A stretch of DNA of 41,802 nucleotides from Chiloscyllium plagiosum (Eukaryota). The translations under genes and the position numbers were made by a program. Positions 7,150 through 41,802 of the stretch are shown here, one piece after another (within the stretch, counting starts at the first letter, position 1; each line of letters starts with the position of its first letter). The notes under the pieces are model-generated. The model searched no databases. It saw only the letters and a list, made by a program, of their open reading frames with translations, and was not told the origin of the DNA. Location: NCBI RefSeq assembly GCF_004010195.1, contig NC_057759.1:3617171-3658972 (forward strand), given 5' to 3'.

Positions 7150-7410
7150 CATATAATCTATGCAGGCTATTTGGCCCATCAAATTCACAGCAACCTTCCG
7201 AACATCATCCCACCAATACCCTACATGCTTACCCTACAGCTCTGCAATTCCCTATGGCTAATCCACACTAATCTGCTCATCCCTGGGCACTTTAGCACAG
7301 CCAATCCCCCCGACACTGCACATCTTTGGACTGTGGGAGGAAACCAGACCACCCAGAGGTAACCCATGCAGACACAGCGGTAGTCGGTGAAGCAGCTCAC
7401 ACCTCCCCCA
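7150..7410 (-). mobile_element. Diverged HE1/V-SINE fragment
   Basis: 'ctgcacatctttggactgtgggaggaaacc...acccatgcagacac' is the reverse complement of the V-SINE core seen at 41740-41802. Confidence 0.75.
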
Positions 7411-8515: not shown

Positions 8516-11199
8516 GCATTTGCACAGGGTGAGCTTGTTGTATTTCTGCCATGTGTGATGTGGTTGGTGGTTATGAACAGAGCCTTATTCACGATGCCAG
8601 AGCATATTATTGTCATCAGGACTTTTCTAGTGATTGCCTAATAAATAATATGCGTAGTGTTACAAACAATTGCAGCTTTGGGTCCTGCTATGATCGCGTT
8701 TGGAGCTTAAATCTAGGTACTGTGCTTAGATTGAATGAAATCCCCTCTCTTCACTCTATTGTTAAACTTGCTGCTCCTCTCTGGTAGCTGTGTTCAAATT
8801 GTTCCAATTACCTGTTGTTAATGGTCTCTTTATAATTACTGTCTGCTTTGCTGGTATCCTGTTGAGAACGAAACTATTCACCACACTGTGCACATCTTTT
8901 AAACTGGCTGTGACATCCAGGGAATGAAGCCTGTCTAGTCAGGTTATCAGTCGAATACTGTAAGTAGATTTAACTCAGGAAAAATAGTCTGCCATTGAAC
9001 CTAAGCGAAAGAAGTTCCACTTGGTTGGTAGTTGCTATGGAGGGAAGTTGAGCACAGGATCTGAGCTCATTGAAATGTAAAAAAAAGGGATGTTACCTGA
9101 TTTAAAATGCAAAATTGCTCAAAAATATAAGGGGTAGATACAGAAAGGTTGTTTCCCCTTGTCAGATTATTAGGAGTGAAGGGGCAATTGGCAGAATTTG
9201 TGGTTGCACATATAAGACAGAGGTTATATCTCAAAGGGTTCTGAATCCGTGAAATTCTACAGTGCAGATGATGTTAAAGCTTCGTCATTCGGTAAGTTCA
9301 AGAAGTGTAATCATTTCCTTTTGGGTAATGAGGAATTTAAACGTCAAGAGTAAAAAGCAGTAAAGTGCAATTAAGGATTGTTAGAATAAACAGGATGTCA
9401 ATTATTGAGAAGCAGACTTGTTGAGGGGATGAGATTCGTTTTTCTCATGTGGCTTTTTTTAATGAACGAAACTTATGGTGTCCAAAAATGCCTGTTGTTT
9501 TGACTATTCACAGATGTGTCTGAATGCTGTAGAGGAGGTAATCATTTCTGAAACTTAGATCGAGCAGGAAATCAAGGTGAAAGGGATCAGAAATGATTAG
9601 AATAATGTGGGAGAAATGATAAAAAATGATCAGAACAAGATCAGAAATGAGAATGATGTGGGAGAAAAAGTATTCTGGTACAAGTCTTGAAAGTTCAAAC
9701 TTAGGAAGAAGAAGGCTTTATTGGACTCCGCTGACCTTCGTTCACAGGAAGGGTCTGGCGATTGTAGGCCGTCCTGGCCACCTGGTGCCGTCTGAACCGA
9801 TTTCAGGTCCTTCTGGTGTCAACTCTCGTTTACCTATTCCCCCTTTGTCAGTCCGTTGCCTTCGGCACATCACAATGACGTCTCCATCATTTTATACTTT
9901 CCTCAAAACTCTGGATCGCCAAAATGAGGAAAGGACACTTCTGCAGAATGGGATGGACAATTTGAGTAGACCGGAAGTAATAACCTCAAATGAAAGAAGA
10001 TTGGATTGGACGGCAACGTTTGCTCATGTCATTTTTCTAGTGAGCATTGTGGCTTGCGTCTGTGATGCAGGACATGCATTGCCGCCTAGTATTGTCGGGG
10101 CAATGACTGCCACTTCACCATCTGCTGCGAAACCCTGCAATTAAACATCGAAATAGTCACAAACATTGAGCAGTGAGACGTTAATGTTATAAAATTAAAC
10201 ATCACCCGTGAAGTGTATCGAAGTCCATTAAATGATTGTGTTTCTTCATCACTTGCATATCCCTCTATCATTATTAGAAGTCGTTGAGTGACACAGATTT
10301 ACCTACAGACTGTCAAACACAGTGCCGTGACCCATTGCATACCCAGTGAGACCGTGACTTTCAGCAATCTGCTGGATTGTTTGGTATGCCTCACACATGC
10401 AGTCTCTCCTTTATCTCACTCTGCTGGGCACTGTTATAATGACACACATACAAAAAAACCCCAGAAAAATCACAATCATGCATCCACATAAACTTACAGT
10501 CTCACCTTCATCTCCTGTTGTGGAACAGAGTGAATATCACATATTCACAGCCTCATCTCTATACTGCGAACTTGACACTGCAGAAATCTAAGGATCTGTC
10601 TCTGTGACTTGTTTTTTTTCCTGCCCTACTCACAATGATTGTCAGATTTCGGACTCACAAACCCTCATAACTCTCCGCCCTCTCCAACTCCTGGAGCCCA
10701 TGCCATCTTATACCTTACTCAATCTAGAACTTTTTGCTACATCTGTAATATTCTTCATATATTACAATTACAGCTGCGTCTTCAATGTGCCATAATGTTT
10801 ACATCCTTTCGTGTCTTTTTTGACCTTCTCCAATTCTATCTTCACTTACATCGTTTGCTATTCTGCCATTGGCTTCATTGCCTCAATGATGCTCACTTTT
10901 TTCTTGACCAGTGTGTGCTTGACGTTTGTTCCATCAGAGCTATTTCTTACCTTTCAACATGTGTCCCTTCCTTTCAACAAAATAAAATATCACTCTTTCT
11001 TCTGACTTCTCTTCGCATAATACATTGCTATCAATATTGCAATGCATTATTGTTTAAATTGAATTAAATTGCTATTATATACAATCGAATTGTTTTTATT
11101 CACATTTTGCTACATAATCTTCCTCATGCCAGTTTCGTTTTTACATAATATACTTGCAAATTTAAGTGAAAACCTGTAGGGTTCTTACAAGACAGTGGG

Positions 11200-13290: not shown

Positions 13291-14120
13291 GTCTCGAGAG
13301 GGGAGCAGGGCACAAGATGGGAAATCCTTCAGTGATGGGGTGGGTGGGGACAATAAGACGGGGAGGCAGTCAGAGTGCAAGGGTTAACACAAGGGCATCA
13401 CACAGATCAGCTTCTCTGAAACCACAGCTCCGCTCTCTTCAACAACCTTTCATTGCTATTCATACATGGTTCGTGGGTGGCTGTGGCTGGGATGGCATTT
13501 GTCGCCCATGACTCGTTTTTGCCCTTCAGCAATTTGGGTGGAGGAGGGGATTTGAACTCCTTGAGTCGTTGCAGTCTTTTTAGAAAGAAGGAATATAATG
13601 TTTAAGTTTTTAACTCATGAGCGTACATGTGACATATCTAATTCAAATCAATTCACATGTATCTGCCACCCTTGCCCTTCTGGATGGAAGTTATTATGGT
13701 TTTGGAAGGTGTTGCCTGTTAACCCCTCATTCCTACTTCAGAGACATGGCAGAGGGGCATTGACTCGAAACTGTGACTCTAGGAAGCTAGTCAGTTTAAA
13801 GACGACAGAGGTGATTGGGTCTGTGCCACTTATGGGCATTGATTGCAATATGCTGCACAACATTTGTCATCTGAAATCAATTAACTATTTAAGGAAAACA
13901 CGGAATATGAACAATGTAGTGAACAGATTTATTCACAATTCAAAACCAGTGGGTAAGGGCTCATGAGGATGTGCAATATCAATAGAGACCCAGACTGCAG
14001 AAACTGCAGTTAACTTCATGCATGCCCTGAGATGCTCCTAGCTGTGGCACACATTTAGTCTTTCACAGTTCAATGGGTATAACGTATGCAGCAATAGAAA
14101 AGAACTTCCAGAACTCCAAT

Positions 14121-15072
14121 TCACCAGCGTGACATCCTATAATTCTGCACATCCCTCTGGCTCTTTTGGAAGCCAATGGATTTAACTGGAAAACAAAGGC
14201 AAGGAGTTCATTGAGCGCCACAGTCATTGGCTGCAACTTTCACATAATCTCAGGAGAGTTATCCATGAACTGTAGAGACAAATGTTGTCTGAGCTACTGA
14301 TGAGCAAACTGTATATAATGAACAGAGGACATCCCCAGGGGGGTAAATCTGTCGATTGCAGTTATGATGCGAATAAGTACAGGTGGTGACATGGTGTGTT
14401 TTAATGGAGACAATATACTGTTTATTTATTATGAAGGGAAAAAATATTCACAAAACATTTAAGATCTGAATTGGGGTTGTTCACTCATGGAAAATATCCG
14501 CAACTCTTCACCAAACACATGGTGACACGATTGTGGACTTTTGGAACTATCAATGGACTCGCCATCCAGGACGACCCAGCTCATGTTCTGAGGAGCTTCC
14601 ATTGAATCCCACCTTCGCAAATGGTAAAATTTGAATCATATTCAAATGGCCTAATGAAGGAAAGGAATATGTACTTGACTAATGTCCGTAAGCAAAGGTT
14701 TACCTTTACCCTTACCTAGTCTGATTTATGTCTGACTGCAGACTCAAAGTAATGTGTTTCACTCCTAAATGCCAATGGGCAATAAGGTATGTCAATAAAA
14801 GTTGACTTTGCCAGCGACGGCTGCGTCCCAAGAACGCTTACTATTCATTTCAAATGATGATTTGAGGTACTTATCAGCCGAAAGCTAACAGAATGGAACT
14901 TGGTCTTCAGAAGAATAAATGACGTCAATCCGCCCTTCTGAAAGTTTAGAACGGTTACTTGAGGAGATATGGACTCACTTGGAGAGGCAATAATTAATGT
15001 TACTCCTTCATCGACAGTGCCGGGCTGCATCATCATCAAGAGCTCAAGAACTAAGAACAGAATGGTTCTCAT
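14121..15072 (-). CDS. Candidate spliced small secreted peptide (52 aa) with a piscidin-like signal peptide; coding exons 15072-14979 and 14185-14121
   Basis: ATG at 15072; donor A|GTGAGT after 14979 (phase 1); acceptor CCTTTGTTTTCCAG| before 14185; in-frame TGA at 14123-14121; AATAAA at 13933-13928. Spliced product: MRTILFLVLELLMMMQPGTVDEGVTLIIASPIKSIGFQKSQRDVQNYRMSRW. No expression evidence. Confidence 0.45.
14535..14845 (+). mobile_element. Diverged tRNA-headed SINE-like element made of the 5' and 3' ends of the LINE at 29002-32646
   Basis: 'atccaggacgacccagctcatgttctg' and 'cttacctagtctg...gactgcagac...aatgtgtttcactc' align with the LINE 5' end; 'gggcaataaggtatgtcaataaa' aligns with its 3' tail. 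Confidence 0.65.
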
Positions 15073-15254
15073 GCTTCCCTGATTTTCTGCTGCAATCGAA
15101 GCTATCTACAGGATGAAAGCTCCTGAAATGATAACGCAGACGATCCTGTGATTAATAATTGCAAAATCCACAACATGAACAGAATCCATAATGCGTATGT
15201 GAAGGGGCCATTTCGCTTATGATTCAAGCAGGAACACACTCAGACTCTCACAGG

Positions 15255-15391: not shown

Positions 15392-16610
15392 AAGAACAAA
15401 GAACAAAGAAAATTACAGCCTTTCGGCCCTCTAAGCCTTCTCCAATCCATATCCTCTATTTAAACCTGTCACCTATTTTCTAAGGGTAGGTATCCCTTTC
15501 CTCATTGCCTATCCAAGTAGCTGTCTAGATGCATCTTAAATGACGCTATCGTATCCGCCTCTGTCACCTCCACTGACAATACGTCCCAAGCACCCACCAC
15601 ACTGTGCGTTAAAAAATTCCATCCATATCTCCCCTAATCATTTCCCTGCTTACTTTCAACTCGTGACCCCTAGTAGTTGAATGCCCCACTGTGGGAAAAA
15701 AATGCTTCTTGTTATCCACCCTGTCAATACTTCTCATGACATTCTAGACCTCAAATCGATCCCCCCTCAACCATCGTCTTTCTAATGAAGATAATTTTAA
15801 TCTACTCAACCTCTCTTCATGGCTAGCGTCTTCCATACCAGGCAACATTCCAGTGAACCGCATCTATAAAGTATCCACATCCTTTTGGGAACGTGGCGAC
15901 CAGAACTGGGCGCAGTATTCCAAATGTGCCCGAACCAAAGTTTGATACAACTGTAACATGACCTGCCAACTCTTGTACTCAATACCACGTCCAATGAAGG
16001 AAAGCATGCCGTATGCCTTCTTGACCACTCTATTGACCTGCATTGCCACATTCAGGGAACAAAGGAACTGAACACCCAGATCTCTCTGTTCATCAATCTT
16101 CTCCGGGGCTTTTCCACTTACTGTACAGTTAACTCTTGAATTGGATCGGCCAAAGTGCATCAGCTCGCATTTGCCCTGACTGATCTCCACCTGCCATGTC
16201 TCCGCCTAATCTACAATCTGACTATGTTCTTCACTATCTTCTATTCCACCAATCTTAGTGTCATCTACAGACTTGCTAATCAGACCACCTATACACTCCT
16301 CAAGGTCATTTATGTATATCACAAACAACAGTGGTCCCATTAGTGATCCCTGTGGAACACCAATGATCACTGGTATTCATTTTGAGAAACTCTCTCCTAC
16401 TACTACTCTCTGTCCCCTGTTGCCAGCCAGTTCTTTATCAGTCTAGCGAGTCCACCATGGACCCGATGTGACTTCACCTTCTCCATCAGCGTACCATGGA
16501 ACCTTATCAAATACCCTACTAAAATCCATGTATAAGACAACTACAGCCCTTCAGTCATCAATCAACTTTGTCACTTCCTCAAGTAATTCTATGAAGTTGA
16601 CGAGACATGA
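15392..16610 (-). mobile_element. CR1 LINE ORF2 (RT and C-terminus) fragment with 3' tail
   Basis: ORF 'KCELMHFGRSN...EQRDLGVQ...VVKKAYGMLSFIGRGIEYKSWQVMLQLYQTLVRAHLEYCAQFWSP', minus-strand 'GVPQGSLMGPLLF', and a (TTCTTTG)-type tail at 15392-15412. Confidence 0.92.
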
Positions 16611-17020: not shown

Positions 17021-18384
17021 AGACCGTCTGACACATTGGAGACAGTGTTGGATAACTCATATTTGAGTTTTCAGCAGCATTCAGCTGCTGGGTTGTCTGT
17101 AACAGTACAATGGTTACTGTGTGGGATGGCTGATATTTGGATACTCAGTCGTGTTGTCTTCGGTAAAACAATATTGACAGTACTGTGAAATAACCAATTT
17201 ATGAAGACTCAGCAGTGTGCAAAGTGTTCTGTCAACAGTAATACATACCTGTACTGTGGAACAACTGAGATTTGGATGTTCCGCTGTGTGCAGCCTGTGA
17301 ATGGAACATTTAAACATTCAATGAGATATTCGATATTTTCCAGTCTTTGCGGTGAGACAACACAGCCTTTGTTGATCTCTGAGAGACTGAATGGAGCATT
17401 GTGACCGGCGAGATCCGCGTTAGAGGCAAACATTTATCGGAGCAATCCACTGTCCACAATGATCAGACATTGTTTCCCCTCACTTCTCTGAAATGAAAGC
17501 ACTTCTGTAAATTGTGTACACTCCCGGCTTTTAGCCCACTCTTCTTTCCCTGAGGCGAAATTCGTCGGTAGCTGATTCTCACCCACAAAGAGCTAACAAC
17601 AACAGGAACGTTACTAAACGCTCTTGTGGTGGTGTGCAAAAGTTCCTATGTCTCATCAAGAAGGTCTGGGTTCATATGCAACAGCTCCTATTCATATGTG
17701 GAAAGCACAAAACCAACTTCAAAATTGTAGCAATGTTTTGATCAGAATTAAGAATGGCTGCTGCTTGTTCAGGCCACTATTAGCATTAGAGAAAGCAGCA
17801 ATATTCTTTGTTTTAATCCACTGCAATTCTGCAGGGAATGATCTGTTTAGATTTTTGGAAGAGATTGAGAGTTTATGCCTTTCTACAAATGTTCATCGGT
17901 GTCTTTTCTTACCGGTGACACATGTACTTCTAACTTTTCATTGCATGACGAAGTGAGTTTCCAGCTTCCCTTCATGCAGCAGGACACAGTTGACCAGCCT
18001 TGAAAGCAATTTTCCTCATTCTCAAGCTCAACCGTCTCCCTGTTTCCATCACAATATATAAATGTTGATTAAGCTCCACCAACCTCGAACATTTCTTGGA
18101 AGCAGACCTTGACATTTACTCCTAGTGCGCTGGCATCAATAAATACCTTCCACCAGAACGGCGGATAACCTGTTGCTAACTTTGGGATTTGACTGTACAC
18201 ATATTATCTACCTTCTATCTTCAATTAAAACAGTGACCGCATTAGTTAGTCATTTCAGGTCTTTCAGCTGTGTTGTTATGTTTTAGGATTAAGGTTGTTG
18301 GACTCGAGGGCAATGAGTAGTAGGGGTTAGTGTCTTTTGTTCTAGGTATTGAATTTAGTTGTTTTAAACAGTGCTTGTGACAGT

Positions 18385-19930
18385 AACGGCTCTTTCCGTC
18401 GCCAGGAGTTTACTGAAGGTGGAGGAAGTGACCTTAGGATTTTGTAAAAGGTGACTAAGTTCAAGATGCTGGAATTAGCAGACAAGCTAGCATTGGAACT
18501 GCCTGATTCAGTGAGGAAAGCAGAGATAATTACATGAATAGCCTGGCATCTAAATTTGCGAGAAGCGCCATCAGAATCTTCAGGAATGGCTCAAATTAAA
18601 TTCGAAATGAAGCAGCTTGCGTTAGAGGCAAAAGACAAGAAATTATGGTTAAAAGCAAATGGGAAAGAAAAAAAAGAAATGAATCGCTTTAGACGAACTA
18701 AAAGAAAGAGAGAGAGAAATGAGAAACGGAAAGAGAGAGAAGAGAAAGACCTGGAGAAAGAGGAAAGGAAGAAAGGGTTTGAAATTCAGAAATTAGCATT
18801 TAGACAGGAAAGCCATCTGAAACAGGTAGAAATGAAGGCTGAAAGTAACTTATTGAGGAAGAGAATAAGAATGACCAAACCCATCGCAGCCAAAGGCCTG
18901 GTGATAAACAGTTTAAATATATAAAAAACATTGCCTAAAGTTAATGAGAAGGATGTGACAGACTTTTGCATCTGATGTGAAAAGGTGGCTAAACAAATGC
19001 GGTAGCCAGTAAGCAAGTGGGTTTTATTAACCCAAACAAATGTTCTAGGTAGAGCCAGTGACATATCCGCATCACTATTAGAGGAGGTAACTTCGACGCA
19101 TGAGCAAGTGGTGAAAGCCATCTTAAGTGCCAGAATCCTACAGACATCGTTTCCGGAAGTTAAAGAGGGACCTTGGTTAAACATGCATTCAGATTGAAAG
19201 AATCAAACAAAGTAAATTCGACAGGTGGATAAGGCATTAAAATAGACCAAATGTATGACATTCTAAGATCGACAATTATTTTAAAGGAGTTCAACATTTC
19301 ACTTCCTGAAGTACTGAGATCTCATGTGGAAGATCAGAGGGTTCAAATGGCAAGATGAGCAGCGGAAATGGCTGATGATTATGATTTGGTCCATAAAGCA
19401 AAATTCGGCTTCGAAAATCAATTTCAACAAGTAAGGGATAGAAATTTGGGGAAAGAAAAATTCTCACTAGGAAAGGAATTTGTGGATCTCTGAGAAAATC
19501 ATAAGGATAACTTACCACAGTGTAAAAAGGACACACTTGAAAGGCAAAGAGAATTTGAATAGCTCCAATATTTTCACTGCAATAAAGTAGGCAACATGAT
19601 ATCACAGTCTTAGTGAGTTAGGAAAAACATTGGGAAACTAGATGTAGGAAAACAGGGTAAGTCAGTGTATTTTATTGGAGTGGTACGAAAGTACAATGGA
19701 GACTAGAAAGCTGCACCAGAATGTACAACCAGTTAGGAGGTAGGTTAAGGAGGAAGTGTCAGACCTTCTTAAACCATATACCTGCGAAGATAATGTTTAT
19801 TCACATAGACAAGGAGCAGCAGATAAAGAAGTTACAATATTACGACATACAGTTTCCTCTCAATCTGTTACAAGATGAGGAGATGTGTACTTCTGAAAGA
19901 CTGTTGCCAGAATAGAGCTAGTAACTGGAA
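18385..19930 (+). mobile_element. Decayed Gypsy (Gmr1-like) LTR retrotransposon: gag and start of protease, copy 1
   Basis: Coiled-coil 'EEKDLEKEERKKGFEIQKLA', 'LPKVNEKDVTDF', a decayed zinc knuckle 'FHCNKVGN...SQ' at about 19570 and protease-like 'KEVTILRHTVSSQS' at about 19830. Many stops and frameshifts. Confidence 0.8.
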
Positions 19931-19979
19931 TTCACGTTCAGACAATCAAACATTAATTCAAACACAAAATAAAACTCAA

Positions 19980-20400
19980 GCGACATCAAATAACTCCCAG
20001 GGCAGGTAGAGTACGGGGATCTATACAGAATAAAGCAGCATCTGCGCTGTCCCACATTTAGGGCTAAAAGGCAGGTTAGGCAAGAGTTTGAAGGAGAATT
20101 AAGCTCCATCTATTATGCTGTAAATCAAAGGTGTCCAGCAGAGGTACAAGCATAGTCGAAAAGGTGCAACATGCGGTTAAATATAGAATTGTGATGTGGA
20201 ATAGCTGCCGAATAATTCCAGGACTATAACAGAATTAGATACAGAACAATGCTTAAACCATACTGACCCCATCAAACACTCCCAAGACAGGTATAGCTTG
20301 GGTTAGATGCAGAATAAAACTTCCCCTCCGAAAGCCCTCTTCAAACACACAGGCTGCGTTCAGCGTAACGTTAGATATTCTTCAAATCACTCTCTTTTCC
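19980..20400 (+). repeat. Degenerate ~65-70-bp tandem repeat (CATCAAACACTCCCAGGACAGGTA...GTTAGATACAGAATAAA-like)
   Basis: Recognisable units begin at about 19984, 20270 and 20341, with more diverged ones between. Confidence 0.6.
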
Positions 20401-20499
20401 TTCACACTGAAAGTAAATCTAAATCTAATCTTTCAAACTGTAAGTAAAACTGCCTTTACTCTTTTAATATAAAATTAAAGCTAACTTTATCTTGTATTA

Positions 20500-23400
20500 A
20501 CTCTTCCAGAAGAGTTTTCTAAGGGTGGAAGAAGTGACTTTAAAGGCTCTATCAAACCTTTAAACAAGGAAAAGCTACTGGAATTGGCAGTCAAGATGGA
20601 GATGGAGCTTCCTTCATCCATTTGAAAAGGAGAGATAATTGCAGTAATATCTCAGCATTTCAACTTGCTGGAAATGCCACCGGAATCTTTGGAGATGGTT
20701 GAAATTCAATTGAAATCGAAACAGCTTGATCTTGAGACAAAATAAAGAAAAGGAAAGAAAATGAAACTATGTGAATTACGATTAAAAGCAGAAGAGCAAA
20801 AGAACAAAAGGCCCTAGCAGAACAAAAAGAAACAGTGTGAAAGAGAGAGAGAGAAGGAAGAGAATGAATGAGAGAGAAAAGAAAAAAGAGGGAATTTGAA
20901 CTTCAGAAATTGGCACTTAAGCAGGAAAGTCGGCTTAAAAGTGTGAAGATGAAGGCTGAAGGTAAGTTTAGTGAGGAAGAGAGTGACGATGAGAAAATCC
21001 ACCGTTCTGGTGGGGATCGGTTTAAACATTTTCAAGCATTGCAGAAGTTTGATAAAAAGCATGTGGAAGCCTTTTTCATACCTTTTCAATAGGCGGCTAA
21101 AAGAATGCAGTAGCCACTGATTATGTTGGTTTTGTTGATCCAAACAGAACTTGAACGTAATGCTAGTGAGGTCTTTAGGTCGTGATCAGATTTGGTATCT
21201 GGTGCGCATGAGGAGATAAAGAAAGCCATTGAAGTGCACATGAGCTTGTGCCAGAAGTCAACAGAAAACTTTTCAGGAAACTAAGGTGTGACCCTGATCT
21301 AATCTACGTTGCGTTTGAGAGGATCAAACAACGTAATTTGGATATGGGTATTAAAAATAGAGTTAACCTATGAAGATCTTGGAGAAGCAATAATTTCTGA
21401 GTTCAAAAATTCCCTTCCTGAGATAGTCAGAACTCACGTTGAAGACAAAGATTTAAAATGGACAGATGAGTAGCTGCAATGGCTGATGATTATTAATTGG
21501 TTCATTAATTAAGGTTTGGCTTCAAACATCAGTTTCATTAATTGAGGGATAGAAATTCTGAAAAAGAGAAATCCTCACGTGGTAAAGGACCACATTGAAG
21601 ATCATAAATATAACCTACAGTATAAAAAGGAAACTCTTGAATTAGAAAGAGGAGTTTAAAATTGCCGGTGATTTCAATGCAATAAAGTAGGCCACGTGAA
21701 ATGACAGTGTTGATGGGATTCAAAAAGCACCGGGAAGCCACTAAGAAAACAAAATGGATAAGCCAGTGAATTTTGTTATTGTTGTAATGGAAAGCACACT
21801 GGAGGCTAACAGTCTGCACCAGAATGTACAGCCTAGTCGGAAGTTGGTCAAGGACGAAGTGCCAGATCTTCTTAAACCGTATTCTTGCAAAGGAAAAGTT
21901 TAGTCGCATAGGCCATGACTAAAAAGGAAATGGTTGCAACTATAAGAGGTACAGCGTCCACTCAAATATTGATGTTGAATGATGCAAAGACATACACCTC
22001 TGAAGGGCTAGTGCCAGAAAAAGTTCCAGTGAGAGCATTTCAGGATGAGACAACAAGTGCTCAGAGTGAGGATGGGGTGTTCTCTGAAGAGTGGAGACGT
22101 CGTGGTAAGAATACTGAACCAACTCTTCGCTCCAGGAATACAATTTATCTTTGCTAACGGTAGGAGTGCTGCCTACTGTGTTTGAAAACGCAGTGGAACA
22201 TCAGGCAACTGAGGTAGTCCAGGAAACATATCCTGGGATATTTCCTGAATGTGTGGTAACGAGGTCACAAACTGACCAGTTGGAACAGGAGAGATCAAAT
22301 AGTACAAATAAGAAAGTTGATTTGGAATTATCAGAGATCCTATTTGGTCAAATGGTCCAGACAAAGCAAGAGCAGATGTTTGACAAAGCAGACACCTTTA
22401 GCTCAGAGAAATTAACTGAGTTACGGAAGACTGATGAAAAACTAAAGCAATTATATCAAAAGGTATTCACAAAAAAAAATCTGAATAAATCCCTGAATGC
22501 TACTTTCCAAATAATTATGTCTGAATGAGGATTTGGAGACCACCACATATTCAAGCAGATGAGAAATGTGCGGAAATTCATAAAATCCTGTGGCCAGTGG
22601 GTTGTAGAAAGCATGTATTGCGGGTAGCACGTGAACTACCAATAACAGGTTAGCGTAAGAAAGCTAAATACAGAAGCTAAAATACAAAAAATATTTATTG
22701 GCCTAAACTGTACAAGGATGCACTTCAATTTTGCCAGACATGTCGTACCTGTCAGATAATTGGAAAGCCACAGGCAGTAATAAAACGCGTACCTTTAATA
22801 CCCATTTTGTAGTTGAGTGACCTCTTACAAGAGATCGAACTAATTGCGTAGGACACTTATCTAAAACAAAGAAAAAGTGGGGAAGAGTATTTGTTCACAA
22901 GAATGATTTCCAGAGTCATTCCATTACGTAATATCAAAACTAAAATCTTTATAGAGGAGTTACTCAAATGTTTCACCAAATATGGATTATCCACAGAGAT
23001 ACAATCAGATCAAGAGTCAATATTCAATCAACGTAATTCAATGAGGATATGGACAGCATCGGAATGAAACAATTCAAATCCATTGCGCACTTTCCAGAAT
23101 CGCAGAGAGCGTGAGAAAGTTTGAATCAGACATAAAATAATTTGTTGAGCGCTTATCGTTAAACTAGCCACATGATTGGGATGCAGGAATTCCATTTGTC
23201 CTCTTTGCCATCAGAAATGGACCATATGAATCGACGAAATTCAGTCCAGTTGAATTAGTTTTTCGGCATGAACTGTGAGGACTGCTAAAATTGATTAAGG
23301 AGAAATTGGTAAATCAAAATTCAGAGACCGCATATTAGGACTCAATGTCAAATTTTAGGGAATGGTGAAATAGAGCGGGGGAGACAACATTTAAAAGTAC

Positions 23401-24210
23401 CACAGCACGCAATGAAATCGGAAGGAGGCAAGAAATCAACAACGTGCCATTTTGCTCTCGGAGATAAGGTGTTAGTGTTACTTCCTGTAGTAAATGAACC
23501 TTTAAAATAATGTGCAGTGGACCCTATCAACTCGAAACGAGATTAATGGAGGTGAACTACTTGAAAACGACTGCAGGCAGAAAGAAATCTCATACCGTGT
23601 GTCACGTGAATATGCCCAAAAGGCATTTTGACGGGGAACAAAGCAAAAGGAGAATGTTTTATCAATTACAACACAAAGTGATGAATGAAGTTTAGAGGAA
23701 TCGAAATTGGACATTGCTGAAATTAATTGAACAATGATGAGTTTGTCAAAAGTTAAGATAACTTATTGAGTTACCTTCCAGAGGAAAATCGAAATGACCT
23801 GTAAGAGTTATTGCTATCACATGGGGAGACATGTGGAAATAAACTAAGAAATGCTACCCTAGTTATACATGATATATCCATAGGAAATGGTGTTCTGATT
23901 GAGAAACATCCTTGTATGCCTAACCTTCTAAAGTTGGCACAGGTTCAAAAGGAGATTGAAAGCATGCTCCAATATGACATATTAGAAGTGAGTTGCAGTG
24001 ACTGGCGCTCACCCATAGTAATGGTGCCAAAGTCAGATGGTACACAACAGTTATGTGTGGGCGATCGCAAAGTCAATGTATCCTATCCTGTTCCACGTTT
24101 GGAAGACTGTATCGAACAGATGAGACATGCAACTTGCATTTATAAGTTGGACTTGGTCAGAGGATACTAGTAGGTGTATTTGGCTGGAAGAGTGAAGCAT
24201 TTTTTCCCTT
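20500..24210 (+). mobile_element. Decayed Gypsy Gmr1-clade LTR retrotransposon: gag-PR-IN-RT (N-terminal part), copy 2
   Basis: gag 'REFELQKLAL...LQKFDKKHVEAFF'; knuckle 'FQCNKVGHVK*QC' about 21670; PR 'VATIRGTASTQIL'; IN 'YWPKLYKDALQFCQTCRTCQIIGKP', 'YGLSTEIQSDQ', 'DWDAGIPFVLFAIR' and GPY/F 'SGPYQL...NYL...CHVNM'; then RT 'SDWRSPIVMVPKSDGT..LCV..RKVN..YPVPRLEDCIEQ...KLDLVRGY'. Confidence 0.92.
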
Positions 24211-27562: not shown

Positions 27563-29140
27563 CCAATTGTATCAAATACATCATTATCCATACCAGTGGA
27601 ATAGGCAGCTCCCAAAAAATGGGAGAGAAGAGATAAGAAAGTGAGAATAGTTTGAATGATCCAACAATGGATTAGAATTTAAGAACAGTAAACTGGAATG
27701 TTAAAACAAAGCATCAGGATCTGAGAACAATAAACTGGGATATTCATACAATGGATCAGAATCTGAGAACAACAAACTGGAATGGTACAATAGAAAGGAA
27801 ATTATTTTTGGGTTTTTCCTGGCTTTCTTATGACAGTTTATGGTTAATATTACAGATGGAAGCTGTACTGCTGATAATTCAGGCAGGTTACTGTCCCCTC
27901 CTCGCTATTGTTGATATCTCTGTCCAATTATTAATTCTGTAAATAATGTTGAATGCCATTGTATTTTTAAAATTCATTTTTGAGTCTTGGGCTCGTATTC
28001 TCTAAGCATTGATAGCCCATCCCTATTTGCCCTTGAGAAGGTGTTGGTGAGCTGCCCTCTTGATTCGCTGAAGTCCATTTGCTGTGGGTGACCCACAATG
28101 TNNNNNNNNNNNNNNNNNNNNNNNNNNNNNNNNNNNNNNNNNNNNNNNNNNNNNNNNNNNNNNNNNNNNNNNNNNNNNNNNNNNNNNNNNNNNNNNNNNN
28201 NNNNNNNNNNNNNNNNNNNNNNNNNNNNNNNNNNNNNNNNNNNNNNNNNNNNNNNNNNNNNNNNNNNNNNNNNNNNNNNNNNNNNNNNNNNNNNNNNNNN
28301 NNNNNNNNNNNNNNNNNNNNNNNNNNNNNNNNNNNNNNNNNNNNNNNNNNNNNNNNNNNNNNNNNNNNNNNNNNNNNNNNNNNNNNNNNNNNNNNNNNNN
28401 NNNNNNNNNNNNNNNNNNNNNNNNNNNNNNNNNNNNNNNNNNNNNNNNNNNNNNNNNNNNNNNNNNNNNNNNNNNNNNNNNNNNNNNNNNNNNNNNNNNN
28501 NNNNNNNNNNNNNNNNNNNNNNNNNNNNNNNNNNNNNNNNNNNNNNNNNNNNNNNNNNNNNNNNNNNNNNNNNNNNNNNNNNNNNNNNNNNNNNNNNNNN
28601 NCCAATTGTATCAAATACATCATTATCCATACCAGTGGAATAGGCAGCTCCCAAAAAATGGGAGAGAAGAGATAAGAAAGTGAGAATAGTTTGAATGATC
28701 CAACAATGGATTAGAATTTAAGAACAGTAAACTGGAATGTTAAAACAAAGCATCAGGATCTGAGAACAATAAACTGGGATATTCATACAATGGATCAGAA
28801 TCTGAGAACAACAAACTGGAATGGTACAATAGAAAGGAAATTATTTTTGGGTTTTTCCTGGCTTTCTTATGACAGTTTATGGTTAATATTACAGATGGAA
28901 GCTGTACTGCTGATAATTCAGGCAGGTTACTGTCCCCTCCTCGCTATTGTTGATATCTCTGTCCAATTATTAATTCTGTAAATAATGTTGAATGCCATTG
29001 TATTTTTTAAATTCATTTTTGAGTCTTGGGCTCGTATTCTCTAAGCATTGATAGCCCATCCCTATTTGCCCTTGAGAAGGTGTTGGTGAGCTGCCCTCTT
29101 GATTCGCTGAAGTCCATTTGCTGTGGGTGACCCACAATGT
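27563..29140. other. 539-bp duplication (27563-28101 = 28602-29140) flanking a 500-N gap (28102-28601); probable assembly artefact
   Basis: Same sequence at offset 1039, with identical ORFs at 27751 and 28790. Both copies abut the gap. Confidence 0.9.
27664..27790 (+). repeat. 42-bp minisatellite, ~3 copies (repeated at 28703-28829)
   Basis: AGAACA.TAAACTGG-type units start at 27682, 27724 and 27766. Confidence 0.75.
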
Positions 29141-32285: not shown

Positions 32286-33009
32286 CCGTCTGGTTTCAGT
32301 TTTTTTTTGTTGCGACTTTCTATTGATTGATACAACTGAGGGGCTTGCTAAGCCGTTTCAGAGGGCAGTTGAGAGTCAACCACATTGCTGTAGCTCTGGA
32401 GTCACATGTCGACCAGTCCAGGTAGAGATGACAGATTTCATTCCCTAAAGTGCATTGATGATCCAGTTGGAATTTTAGACAATGTTTTCATGGTCATCAG
32501 TGGACTCGTAATTTCAGTTTTTTTAAATGCTTGGATTTAAATTCCACAAACGGCCAGGGCAGGATTCTAACCCACGTCCCCAGAACTGTATGATGGGTTT
32601 CTGGATTAACAATCGAGCAATCATACCACCAAGCCATCGCCTCCCCATGCACCGGTGCATTTTATTTCACTCAGAATATAATGAGAATGAGACAACTTAA
32701 CTGGAGCCTGAAAGGTCTGTAACAGGCAGATGGAAAGAACAGGTAATTAAAACATCCACAGGGTCCCAGAAGCAAAACTGAACAAAGTATCACTCATGTA
32801 AGGGTCAAGGAATTACAAATACTGCAATAAGTCATATTAATGTGTGGGCAGCATGACAAGTCGCAATATGATACATGAAATAATCAGGTACATTACACTA
32901 TCTTCTCGCTATGTGCTGCCTTCCCCGTCCTTAAGTCTCCATTCTCAATCGGAGGGTTTGGGTACCTAGGAAAATTTCCTTTTGTTCTGCTGGAAAGGGA
33001 CTAATTTGC

Positions 33010-33309
33010 TCAGCTTCCGAATCCATACGGACTGCGGCCCTAAAGCTTCAGAGCATACACCACATCCATGGCCGTGACCATCTTGCGCTTGGCGTGCTCA
33101 GTCTAGGTGTAGATGACCGCATCACATTCTCCAGGAAAACCTTCAGCACCCCGCGGGTCTCCTCGTAGATCAATTCAGAGATGGGTTTGAACCCTTCACA
33201 GCGAGCCAGGCGCCAGATGTCTGGTTCCATGATTCCCTGGATGTTATAATGGCACACAGCGGCGCTGCTTTGCTCCACCTTTTCCCAGGCCTATGCCTCC
33301 TCGAGACAT
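33010..33309 (-). pseudogene. H4: Histone H4 pseudogene (frameshifts and stops)
   Basis: [17 protein letters not shown] / [38 protein letters not shown] / [29 protein letters not shown]. Confidence 0.95.
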
Positions 33310-33364
33310 CACGTTTAGTCCTTTCAATGGCTGCTGAATGACATCAGAAGTGCCTCCCCTTTCT

Positions 33365-37498: not shown

Positions 37499-39130
37499 AT
37501 GGGTCATCACATAGATGAGATGGAAGCTCCGTTTTCACCATTAGTAAAAACATGTGGGATGTTTCTGGAAAAAATCCAAAGCCTTTCGAAAATGTTCTGC
37601 CTCCCTAAATAAAGCATTGGGCGATGAGCAGTGGCCACTCAGTGGACCTAGAAGTATTCAATTAATCAAGTCAGCCCAGCAAATGATTTGACAAAGGAAC
37701 AAGAATTCCAAGATAAAGGAACTAATTAGACTGTGGAGACAATGCTATGATGAAACTCATAAAGAGTCAGTTTTGTGTTCATGGCAAAATAATGCCACTA
37801 AATTGGGAATTGAACTAACTGCTGATGGAGCCATGAAATCTATTGAGGTCATAAAAAACGAATGTGATTGAACAAAACCCCGCCAACAGAAACAACATGA
37901 GAAGTCACTAATCAAACTCCCGTTTCCCCATCCCCTCCCCAGTTCACTGACGCTGTTGCTTTCAACACTCGCAGTCAGCAAATATTGAAACAGTACAGAT
38001 CTTCTAATAAAGAACTCATGCAGCAATTAGAAACCACTTTACATTCTTCTTCTTAAAATGCGAAAGACGAAGCACCCACATTAGGAATGTTCTATGTCAA
38101 GCAACTACCGAACCGACAAGCTGCTTCTCCTAACGCTAATATCCGTTTTTATTGTCCACGGAAGCCCCACAAAAGTATGTCCATCCTCAGTAATGCACTC
38201 GACCGCCACAAGACTCCTCAGCAGTTCGTTGACTTTTAAACACCACAATTAAAACTTATGGTAGTAATGCCAATGACCGTTGGGTCCTACTTCCACAAGT
38301 GCTTACCCGCTCTGATTATATCCGTTTTACTGAATATATTAATCACAATAACTTTACTGCTTTCGCGAATGCTGTAGTCCAGGAAAAACAGCGACAAGAT
38401 AGTATTCGCGCTGTTGCATCTGCTATATTAGCAAAACCTATTGACCTTGCTCGCATCCTTGAACTTCGCCCCAAAAATAAGGAGTCTGCTTAAGATTTCC
38501 TTGACCGTTTTAGAGAATGTTATGAGTCCTATTCCAACGATTGGGCTTGGAATTTGAATGCAATTAATGTTCAGGATAATTCTATGATTTAAACGGCCTG
38601 CCGCCTTCTGTAGTCACTGCAGTCAAAACAAACAATCTAGACTGGATTGATGCCACCCCTAATCAACTCCATTGTTTTATTAGGGCCTTGTGGAATCGGC
38701 AGAATGAAGACAGTCCAACAATCCGTGTAAAAGCAGAATTTGTAGTCCAAGATGAGGAACCTCAACACCCAAGTGTGTCATAGTAGTGGCCCTGCACCAA
38801 TTCGAGGCCACAGTCGTGGGTATGGCAGAGAGAATCGCCCAGGCGTCCATTCACGGCCTGCTTTAATTGTAACAGCCTATATCACTTTACTCGTGACTGT
38901 CCGACTCGAAACTGCCTTACTTGTGGCAGCACCCTCCATTGGACCTCTAATTGCCCTAAAAGGGCCACACAGTGGAACCAAGGAAGCTTTCATGAGAATT
39001 ACCCTGAGAACTCCTATTACACTTGGGATAAACCTCCTGGTAACAATCATCCTCCACCACAAGCAAGAGTCAAAGGACTACCCCACTTGACCTACACATC
39101 TTTGGATGACAGAGAAATAGAAGTAATGTA
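37499..39130 (+). mobile_element. gag: Decayed gag of an epsilon/gamma-like endogenous retrovirus, truncated near the start of pro
   Basis: MG start at 37499; matrix motif 'QWPLSG'; MHR-like 'ILELRPKNKESA*DFLDRFRECY'; two CCHC knuckles CFNCNSLYHFTRDC and CLTCGSTLHWTSNC (38859-38955). Confidence 0.85.
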
Positions 39131-40249: not shown

Positions 40250-40695
40250 GGTTTGGGAGGTCGTGTTGCGGCTGTACAGGACATTAGTTGGAATATTATA
40301 TGCAATTCTGGTCTCCTTACTGTCGGAAGATGAGAAACTTGAAAGGGTTCAGAAAAGATTTACAAGGATATTGCCAGGGTTGGAGGAATTGAGCTACAGG
40401 GAGAGGTTGAGTAATCGAGGGCCGTTTTGCCTGGAGCAGCGGAGGCTGAGGTGTGACCTTACAGAGGTAAGTAAAACATGCGGTACATGGATAGGAAAGT
40501 CTTTTCCCTGGCATTGGTTTCGGGTGAGACAGGAAAGATATAAAAGAGACCTAAGGGGCAACTTTTGACTCAGAGGGTGGTACGTGTATAGAATGAGCTG
40601 CCAGAGGAAGTGGTGGAGGCTAGTATAATTGCGATATTTAAAAGGCATCTGGATGTAAATATGAATATGAAGGGTTTGGAGCGGTATGGGCCAGA
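40250..40695 (+). mobile_element. CR1 LINE 3' fragment
   Basis: 'MLRLYRTLV...KLERVQKRFTRILPGLEELSYRERL...EQRRLRCDLTEV...KRDLRGNF'. Confidence 0.9.
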
Positions 40696-40891
40696 ATGGC
40701 GTGGATATTACAAACAAGCATGTTGTTCAGGAAATAAAATTGCTGCCAATAAACAATTGGAATGTGTCTCAATATCAGGTAGAGGATAATGACCGGTAGA
40801 TCTACCACTGCCAAGGCCATCAGGTAATGACTGACACATGGAGACAGTCCACAATCTTCATAAAGCAGAACGATGATCGTCACTATGTTAA
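40693..40891 (-). pseudogene. Truncated exon of a GPR139/GPR142-like class A GPCR (end of TM1 to start of TM3)
   Basis: Acceptor 'actttcctcacag|' then VNIVTIIVLLYEDCGLSPCVSHYLMALAVVDLPVIILYLILRHIPIVYWQQFYFLNNMLVCNIHAIL (TM1 Asn, YLxALAxxD in TM2, TM3 Cys). The frame runs directly into CR1 sequence. Confidence 0.85.
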
Positions 40892-41289
40892 CTGTGAGGA
40901 AAGTATGCAAACAAAGTGTAAACAATCTAGAAACAAAGTTACCCATTTGATTAAGGGTCCAGTCAAATTTTCAAATATGTTACTTTATTAAGAGATTTTT
41001 TGGAAGAATTAGAGCTGAAATGATAAATGTTAACCTTTGAATTATTTACCCGAATGTGAAGCAATTCACAAGCCATACTCCCTCCTTAAAACCAGCCAAA
41101 CACGTCAACAGAAAAGATGATTTCTAGAACATTCTCACACGCTGGATTACTTGAGGGCAGATAGCGATCACATCTTTACAGTTGCTAATACAGAGAGTAA
41201 AGACGTTGCGATCACGAAGGATTCCTTGGTACGCTTAGCTCTAGTTCAGTTTACTGACATCTAGAGGTTCACAAAAGATACTGGGTATG

Positions 41290-41465: not shown

Positions 41466-41637
41466 TATCCTCCTCCCCACTTTTTCTCCTTTCAAAGTCA
41501 CACAGTTCCAGACAGAAGTGGACGCGATTATCATTGAAGATATCATCAAACCGACTCCGAATGAATAGATTTCATCTATCATCTTCATCACAAACCTGAT
41601 GGGACATAATGATTATGTTTGGACTTCTGAGAGTTGT

Positions 41638-41802
41638 GGGCGGCACGGTGGCACAGTGGTTAGCACTGCTGCCTCACAGCGCCAGAGACCCGGGTTCAAT
41701 TCCCGACTCAGGCGACTGACTGTGTGGAGTTTGCACGTTCTCCCCGTGTCTGCGTGGGTTTCCTCCGGGTGCTCCGGTTTCCTCCCACAGTCCAAAGATG
41801 TG
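41638..41802 (+). mobile_element. HE1 SINE (V-SINE superfamily), young-looking copy running off the window end
   Basis: tRNA head with A box TGGCACAGTGG and B box GGTTCAATTCC, then the V-domain 'gtgtggagtttgcacgttctccccgtgtctgcgtgggtttcctccgggtgctccggtttcctcccacagtccaaaga'. Confidence 0.95.

Follow-up and report, generated by a model that had tools for sequence, protein, structure and literature searches.

What kind of gene do two small exons on the minus strand of the Chiloscyllium plagiosum genome, between about 13928 and 15157 of the window (the whole 41,802-nt stretch of DNA analysed), represent? An initial annotation had read them as the gene of a piscidin-like secreted peptide, living or decaying. 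We find that the proposed peptide most likely comes from reading a beta-defensin copy, itself probably dead, in the wrong frame. The relevant features, in window coordinates, are the following.

15125–15157, minus strand: TATA-like hexamer at 15157 and initiator-like heptamer at 15131, about 28 nt apart; weak, a consensus match only
14979–15122, minus strand: putative signal-peptide exon; 50-nt leader, ATG at 15072, 31 codons plus 1 nt, phase-1 donor
14613–14650, minus strand: candidate middle exon of 38 nt, absent from the initial annotation; its acceptor ranks 31 among 2638 and its donor 27 among 2312
14063–14185, minus strand: first part of a probable decayed beta-defensin mature exon; frame 0 from the acceptor, stop at 14065–14063
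14121–14123, minus strand: TGA ending the 52-residue product; in frame with the CC pair, which follows 10 codons later
14070–14093, minus strand: probable C5–C6 pair; CC at 14093, then a basic residue and a stop at 14072–14070; in another frame than C2 and C3
13928–13933, minus strand: putative polyadenylation signal (AATAAA), about 140 nt beyond the CC-frame stop

On recheck every position of the proposed two-exon model was reproduced exactly (AG before 15122, ATG at 15072, donor after 14979, acceptor before 14185, TGA at 14123 and AATAAA at 13933), as were the length of the leader, the 94 coding nucleotides up to the phase-1 donor, the 52-residue product and the net charge of +4 over its last 29 residues. 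Splice sites on the minus strand of the window were ranked with a rough weight matrix, its base frequencies taken from general knowledge. By this measure the donor after 14979 ranked 18 among 2312 GT sites and the acceptor before 14185 ranked 18 among 2638 AG sites; the acceptor before 15122 reached only rank 95 and was outscored by one at 15105. Alternative phase-0 donors were weak (15003, rank 769 of 2312; 14958, rank 259 of 2312). The predicted 14979/14185 junction would remove an intron of 793 nt; within 3 kb of the donor there are eight acceptors that score comparably. Upstream of the ATG exon, the matches to the general TATA and initiator consensus suggest that this exon may be exon 1, with no non-coding exon before it; the AG acceptors at 15122 and 15105 speak for the rival reading.

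By hydropathy, the product of the signal exon has a basic residue at position 2, a hydrophobic core broken by Glu10, the glutamate against which the initial annotation had cautioned, and then a short putative propiece. Such a signal-exon pattern is common by chance, occurring 0.7 times per shuffled window (30 shuffles); the real window holds three such ATG sites (four rows). The locus stands above chance because of the defensin cysteine motif behind the 14185 acceptor, which had gone unseen in the initial annotation, and not because of the signal-exon pattern. No repeat match or second copy of the locus was found elsewhere in the window, and its neighbours on both sides are LINE-like pieces.

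In frame 0 from the 14185 acceptor the exon reads Ser-x4-Gly-x-Cys-x4-Cys-x2-Gly-Glu. C2 lies at 14149, in the context G-x-C2, and C3 at 14134 in the same frame; at the position of C1 (14170), with the right spacing to C2 (X6), stands a Ser codon one base from Cys. Avian beta-defensins are described by the motif C-X2-4-G-X1-2-C-X3-5-C-X2-8-G-X1-6-C-X5-6-CC (PMC11874394), and a similar beta-defensin motif is described in PMC3161384. Both conserved glycines are kept here (X4-G-X1-C2 and C3-X2-G), as are four of the six defensin cysteines (C2, C3, C5 and C6), with C1 replaced and C4 absent. The C3–C5 span measures 38 nt and contains no Cys codon in any frame; the published motif needs 45–51 nt. 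The CC pair is out of frame because this span lacks 7, 10 or 13 nt relative to the published spacing, and a single loss of that length would account for the missing C4 and the frame shift together. Six cysteines in one frame (C-X4-6-C-X3-5-C-X9-10-C-X5-6-CC) are not found at the locus; what remains fits descent from a beta-defensin. Direct splicing of the signal exon to this exon is phase 1 but out of frame with C2 and C3, whereas a three-exon model that includes the 38-nt candidate is in frame but phase 0. With six donors and the three-exon model tested, no splice product carried more than two cysteines, and a defensin fold would therefore be impossible now.

How often would a defensin motif stand behind an acceptor by chance? 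The acceptor itself had been chosen blind to the motif. We relaxed the published motif by allowing a near-cognate C1, not requiring C4 and accepting CC in any frame. These relaxations were set after the sequence had been seen, so the rates flatter the match: one of the 304 acceptors in the window had the relaxed motif, namely that at 14185, against 3 of 73,820 in 200 order-3 Markov resamples, and a looser cysteine-only motif likewise occurred at one of the 304, against 29 of 35,427 in 150 shuffles. A stricter motif (0 of 35,385) was fitted to the sequence and so is not counted as evidence.

The natural frames matched no Pfam family, PF00711 and PF13841 included. When X was set at the two breaks to give a read-through, its sole match among 24,736 families was Defensin_1 (PF00323; E 0.058). 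At 14.4 bits this match lies below the cut-off of 21.4, it is to the alpha-defensins and not to PF00711, and the read-through had been picked to keep the cysteines in register and was run with no control. Among solved structures neither the natural frames nor the X read-through had a match, an atlas search with the natural frame gave no usable match, and no candidate relative was found for the signal exon among proteins of 41–132 residues or for the cysteine exon among proteins of 31–102 residues. We rejected a representative-library match to a 1647-residue protein as a tandem-repeat artefact with no matched stretch. In metagenomes 590 pattern matches yielded none that was confirmed, and all 22 of the 22 loci retrieved with an 18-base pattern matched over just 18–24 bases, which is chance. 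Because no relative was retrieved for either exon, the motif and the layout of the gene, and no alignment, are what the assignment is based on.

The two exons are probably a beta-defensin gene copy turned pseudogene. They have the layout of a beta-defensin gene, with a signal exon, its signal peptide judged by hydropathy, a phase-1 intron and, about 800 nt away, a cysteine exon. For galliform birds a pseudogene has been defined by a frameshift before the last conserved cysteine (PMC11874394), and we class the shark locus as a pseudogene because that definition, applied here, covers it. The idea of a small secreted host-defence-type gene in a shark thus survives as to gene type; the family and the frame do not, the last exon being most likely a broken six-cysteine beta-defensin exon. 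The hedge that this might be a decaying copy describes its likeliest state. The ancestor would have made a prepropeptide that was secreted by means of its signal peptide and lost a propiece; the mature part would have carried three disulfides (C1–C5, C2–C4 and C3–C6) and served in host defence or signalling. The copy would have been duplicated within a large family and then have decayed, in a process of birth and death. Any transcript made today would encode a cysteine-free 52-mer by direct splicing or a two-cysteine 84-mer if the 38-nt exon were included; the two cysteines of the latter could not pair as in a defensin, and neither product would be able to form a defensin fold.

The 38-nt candidate was the sole stop-free one among ten candidate exons in the intron. 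Its inclusion converts phase 1 to phase 0 and brings the cysteine motif into frame, giving an 84-residue product with two cysteines. Such an exon arose in 6 of 2000 shuffled introns with thresholds set at the observed scores, in 98 of 2000 at looser thresholds, and in 3 of 189 stretches of real sequence, which overlap and include the locus itself. The out-of-frame direct splice could reflect a second frameshift in a gene with two coding exons, or the gene could have had three coding exons from the start; either fits. A further reading, which we hold improbable, takes the exon as genuine and as the mark of a subfamily of shark defensins built from three coding exons, whose piscidin-like leader (the signal exon together with the small exon) was joined to a beta-defensin cysteine exon. 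If this were true, any intact relatives would exemplify in living form the exon shuffling by which beta-defensins have been proposed to arise, with a cysteine exon combined with diverse leaders (PMC7203481), and piscidin and defensin genes could be linked in the jawed-vertebrate ancestor. The possible middle exon provides a handle on whether some shark defensins differ in their leader.

Read as a dead beta-defensin, the locus most resembles the vertebrate beta-defensins (PF00711) and in particular avian AvBD genes, in which a phase-1 intron separates the signal exon from the cysteine exon (PMC11874394); in finches the signal exon mostly lies about 700 bp upstream of the cysteine exon (PMC3161384). 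Alike are the signal exon, its phase-1 donor, the cysteine exon about 0.8 kb downstream, the G before C2, the spacing C2-x4-C3, the G after C3, the terminal CC and the position of all cysteines on one exon. Unlike AvBD genes, the shark locus has no C1 or C4 and its CC is out of frame, the signal exon encodes 31 residues compared with a signal of about 20, and the possible extra exon of 38 nt would make the last intron phase 0 in place of the conserved phase 1. Teleost beta-defensins are likewise small secreted six-cysteine genes, with three exons as in the alternative model here. Their cysteines, however, are split 4+2 over exons 2 and 3, whereas those of birds and mammals lie in one exon (PMC11541337, PMC3978493) and those of the shark locus all lie in the last. 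A phase-1 intron before the cysteine region is also common to big defensins (PMC7203481), which in the three-exon model only would share a longer N-terminal region before the beta-defensin-like domain. That region would be about 26 residues long and proline-rich here, with no dibasic site before it, and a conserved phase-1 intron immediately ahead of the cysteine domain would be missing from the three-exon model.

A single dead defensin copy is ordinary by itself: in galliforms 7 pseudogenes were counted among 354 beta-defensin genes, 4 of them by frameshift (PMC11874394). The present locus adds one death event to the shark beta-defensins, and a dead member with a possibly unusual leader. The range of the family is given as teleosts to mammals in PMC7203481, and the antimicrobial-peptide section of PMC6795676 lists no shark defensin; passages of PMC10707392, PMC13337447 and PMC6780625 added nothing on shark defensins or piscidins. 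Among the titles listed, our literature search showed none describing a shark piscidin or defensin, and since most subscription journals and supplements lay outside its scope, absence from print is not established.

The stretch was found in 4 of 16 listed sequencing runs, all from one study and none of them an RNA run; X1 and X2 are among these four, which may include the source of the assembly. Over the signal exon, an X1 contig (14874–15415) differed from the window by 10 substitutions in 542 bases and an X2 contig (14950–15284) by 5, in both cases with no gaps and with the exon length kept. Codon 4 encodes Ala in X1 and Ile in the window, a three-base change. An X2 contig over the last exon (13631–14388) carried 3 substitutions and no gaps, and the shortfall that leaves 38 nt between C3 and C5 was there too. 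The indel table of the compared samples had no entry in 13900–15130. The lesion is therefore not obviously an assembly error, nor is it confined to the window's assembly, with the caveats that the sample may be the assembly's source and that the differences listed are 79 rows short of the full set. In two runs, read depth over the bin holding the cysteine exon was about half that over other long contigs (21.8 versus 42–47 and 9.6 versus 18–19), a dip that is no finding by itself, depth here being no copy number, and serves only as a lead to a second haplotype. In single-cell RNA runs from one sample, 37 records of X5 matched among 12,955,460, a set amounting to about 2% of that run, all partially and in LINE-like bins only, and none of 8,328,510 records of X6 did; the unique parts of the 11-kb stretch were uncovered.

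Two further differences were seen in these contigs. The fit of the X2 signal-exon contig ends at 14950, 28 nt into the intron, where it joins letters matching a LINE-like piece near 15683; this break is possibly a polymorphic insertion. At 17124–17486 an X2 contig differs at 23 of 361 bases plus 2 gaps, the listed changes being common to X1, which suggests a divergent haplotype or a paralogue; most other listed contigs differ by 0–1%. A candidate non-coding exon at 17294–17249 was dropped, its donor G being absent in both X1 and X2.

Among the other readings of the locus, the one originally proposed placed the 52-mer in the piscidin family. A piscidin gene has four exons, the third of 19–49 bp, and encodes a linear amphipathic peptide together with a conserved signal of 22 residues and a C-terminal prodomain (PMC7369796; PMC3978493). 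The shark locus, like piscidin and pleurocidin genes, has a signal exon that possibly follows a non-coding exon and ends in phase 1, and the 38-nt candidate, an internal exon of similar size, would give the piscidin four-exon layout with its small third exon (PMC7369796). Its mature part is unlike theirs. The final 29-mer is no more amphipathic than its shuffles, its best helical moment being reached by 691, 1836 and 1706 of 2000 in 11-, 18- and 22-residue windows, and it contains no His, in agreement with the earlier caveat that this is not a classic piscidin helix. The 52-mer runs only 21 residues into the last exon and ends there, without a C-terminal prodomain. The comparison with Pfam profiles that the initial annotation had called for placed neither part in a family, with E up to 10 for the signal exon, although short signal exons often fail such scans. 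With the 38-nt exon included, the last exon, which bears the defensin cysteine motif, is read in the cysteine frame, and sea bass third exons of 19 or 40 bp (3n+1), against 38 here (3n+2), would set the next intron in a different phase, judging from the sizes given in PMC7369796. A true piscidin family member in the shark is thus extremely improbable, and the claim of a first shark piscidin falls away. We also regard it as very unlikely that the direct splice yields a living gene in new form, a secreted, cysteine-free cationic peptide encoded by what was once a defensin exon, read in a shifted frame. Such a gene would explain the strong donor and 14185 acceptor, the stop in the last exon, the retained polyadenylation signal and the net +4 of the last 29 residues; a recent pseudogene, however, would be expected to keep strong splice sites for some time, and the lack of amphipathicity beyond shuffles, the failure to retrieve a homologue and the Glu in the signal core all speak against it.

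The remaining alternatives concern whether the copy is dead in every individual and whether it was ever a gene. It could be that the allele in the window is broken while other individuals or haplotypes still have an intact gene, through segregating loss or copy-number variation. The signal exon is indeed polymorphic, as the 10 of 542 differing bases and the three-base change at codon 4 in X1 attest, and half depth over the cysteine exon in both runs would fit a second haplotype. Yet depth is no guide to copy number here, the haplotype in X2 differs from the window by three substitutions with no gaps, and more than one event is suggested by the two or more lesions (the change at C1; the frameshift and the loss of C4) and by Glu10 within the signal core; we consider a segregating break unlikely. 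The locus could also be made up of motifs that arose by chance in intergenic DNA rich in repeats, or hold the first exon of a gene unrelated to defensins with its other exons elsewhere. In favour are the ease with which signal-exon-like motifs arise in shuffled windows and the failure to find any database relative. Against this, the defensin motif lies exactly behind the acceptor that the initial annotation had chosen, no repeat match to the region was found within the window, and its DNA depth is low, unlike that of the flanking LINE pieces; we hold this account quite unlikely. A probable beta-defensin pseudogene is the reading we retain.

Several other elements were noted elsewhere in the window. 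At 10497–10514 on the minus strand, an acceptor at 10514 and donors at 10505 and 10497 would make micro-exons of 9 or 17 nt, inside a stretch of long, nearly invariant contigs (9439–10724). A decayed element that looks LTR/gypsy-like by eye occupies 18400–24200, with an internal duplication (18406–19808 versus 20512–21911) at 66.5% identity. A 539-nt duplicate of 99.8% identity (27563–28101 versus 28602–29140) flanks a gap of 500 N and is probably an assembly overlap artefact. At 38787–39128 on the plus strand lies a gag-like retroelement remnant with a zinc knuckle (zf-CCHC, E 3.9e-05). On the minus strand, 32990–33330 holds what we take, by eye, to be a frameshifted histone H4-like remnant; the one frame scanned had no Pfam match. 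A truncated GPR139-like receptor at 40641–40970 (minus strand) runs into LINE-like sequence near 40700; its 13 matches among 21 candidates are all carpet-shark proteins named 'probable GPR139' (Rhincodon, Stegostoma and Chiloscyllium), at 69–76% identity, which supports a shark source for the DNA. Finally, a SINE-like element at 41630–41802 (minus strand), presumably of shark type, matches 7319–7375 at its start with 91% identity.
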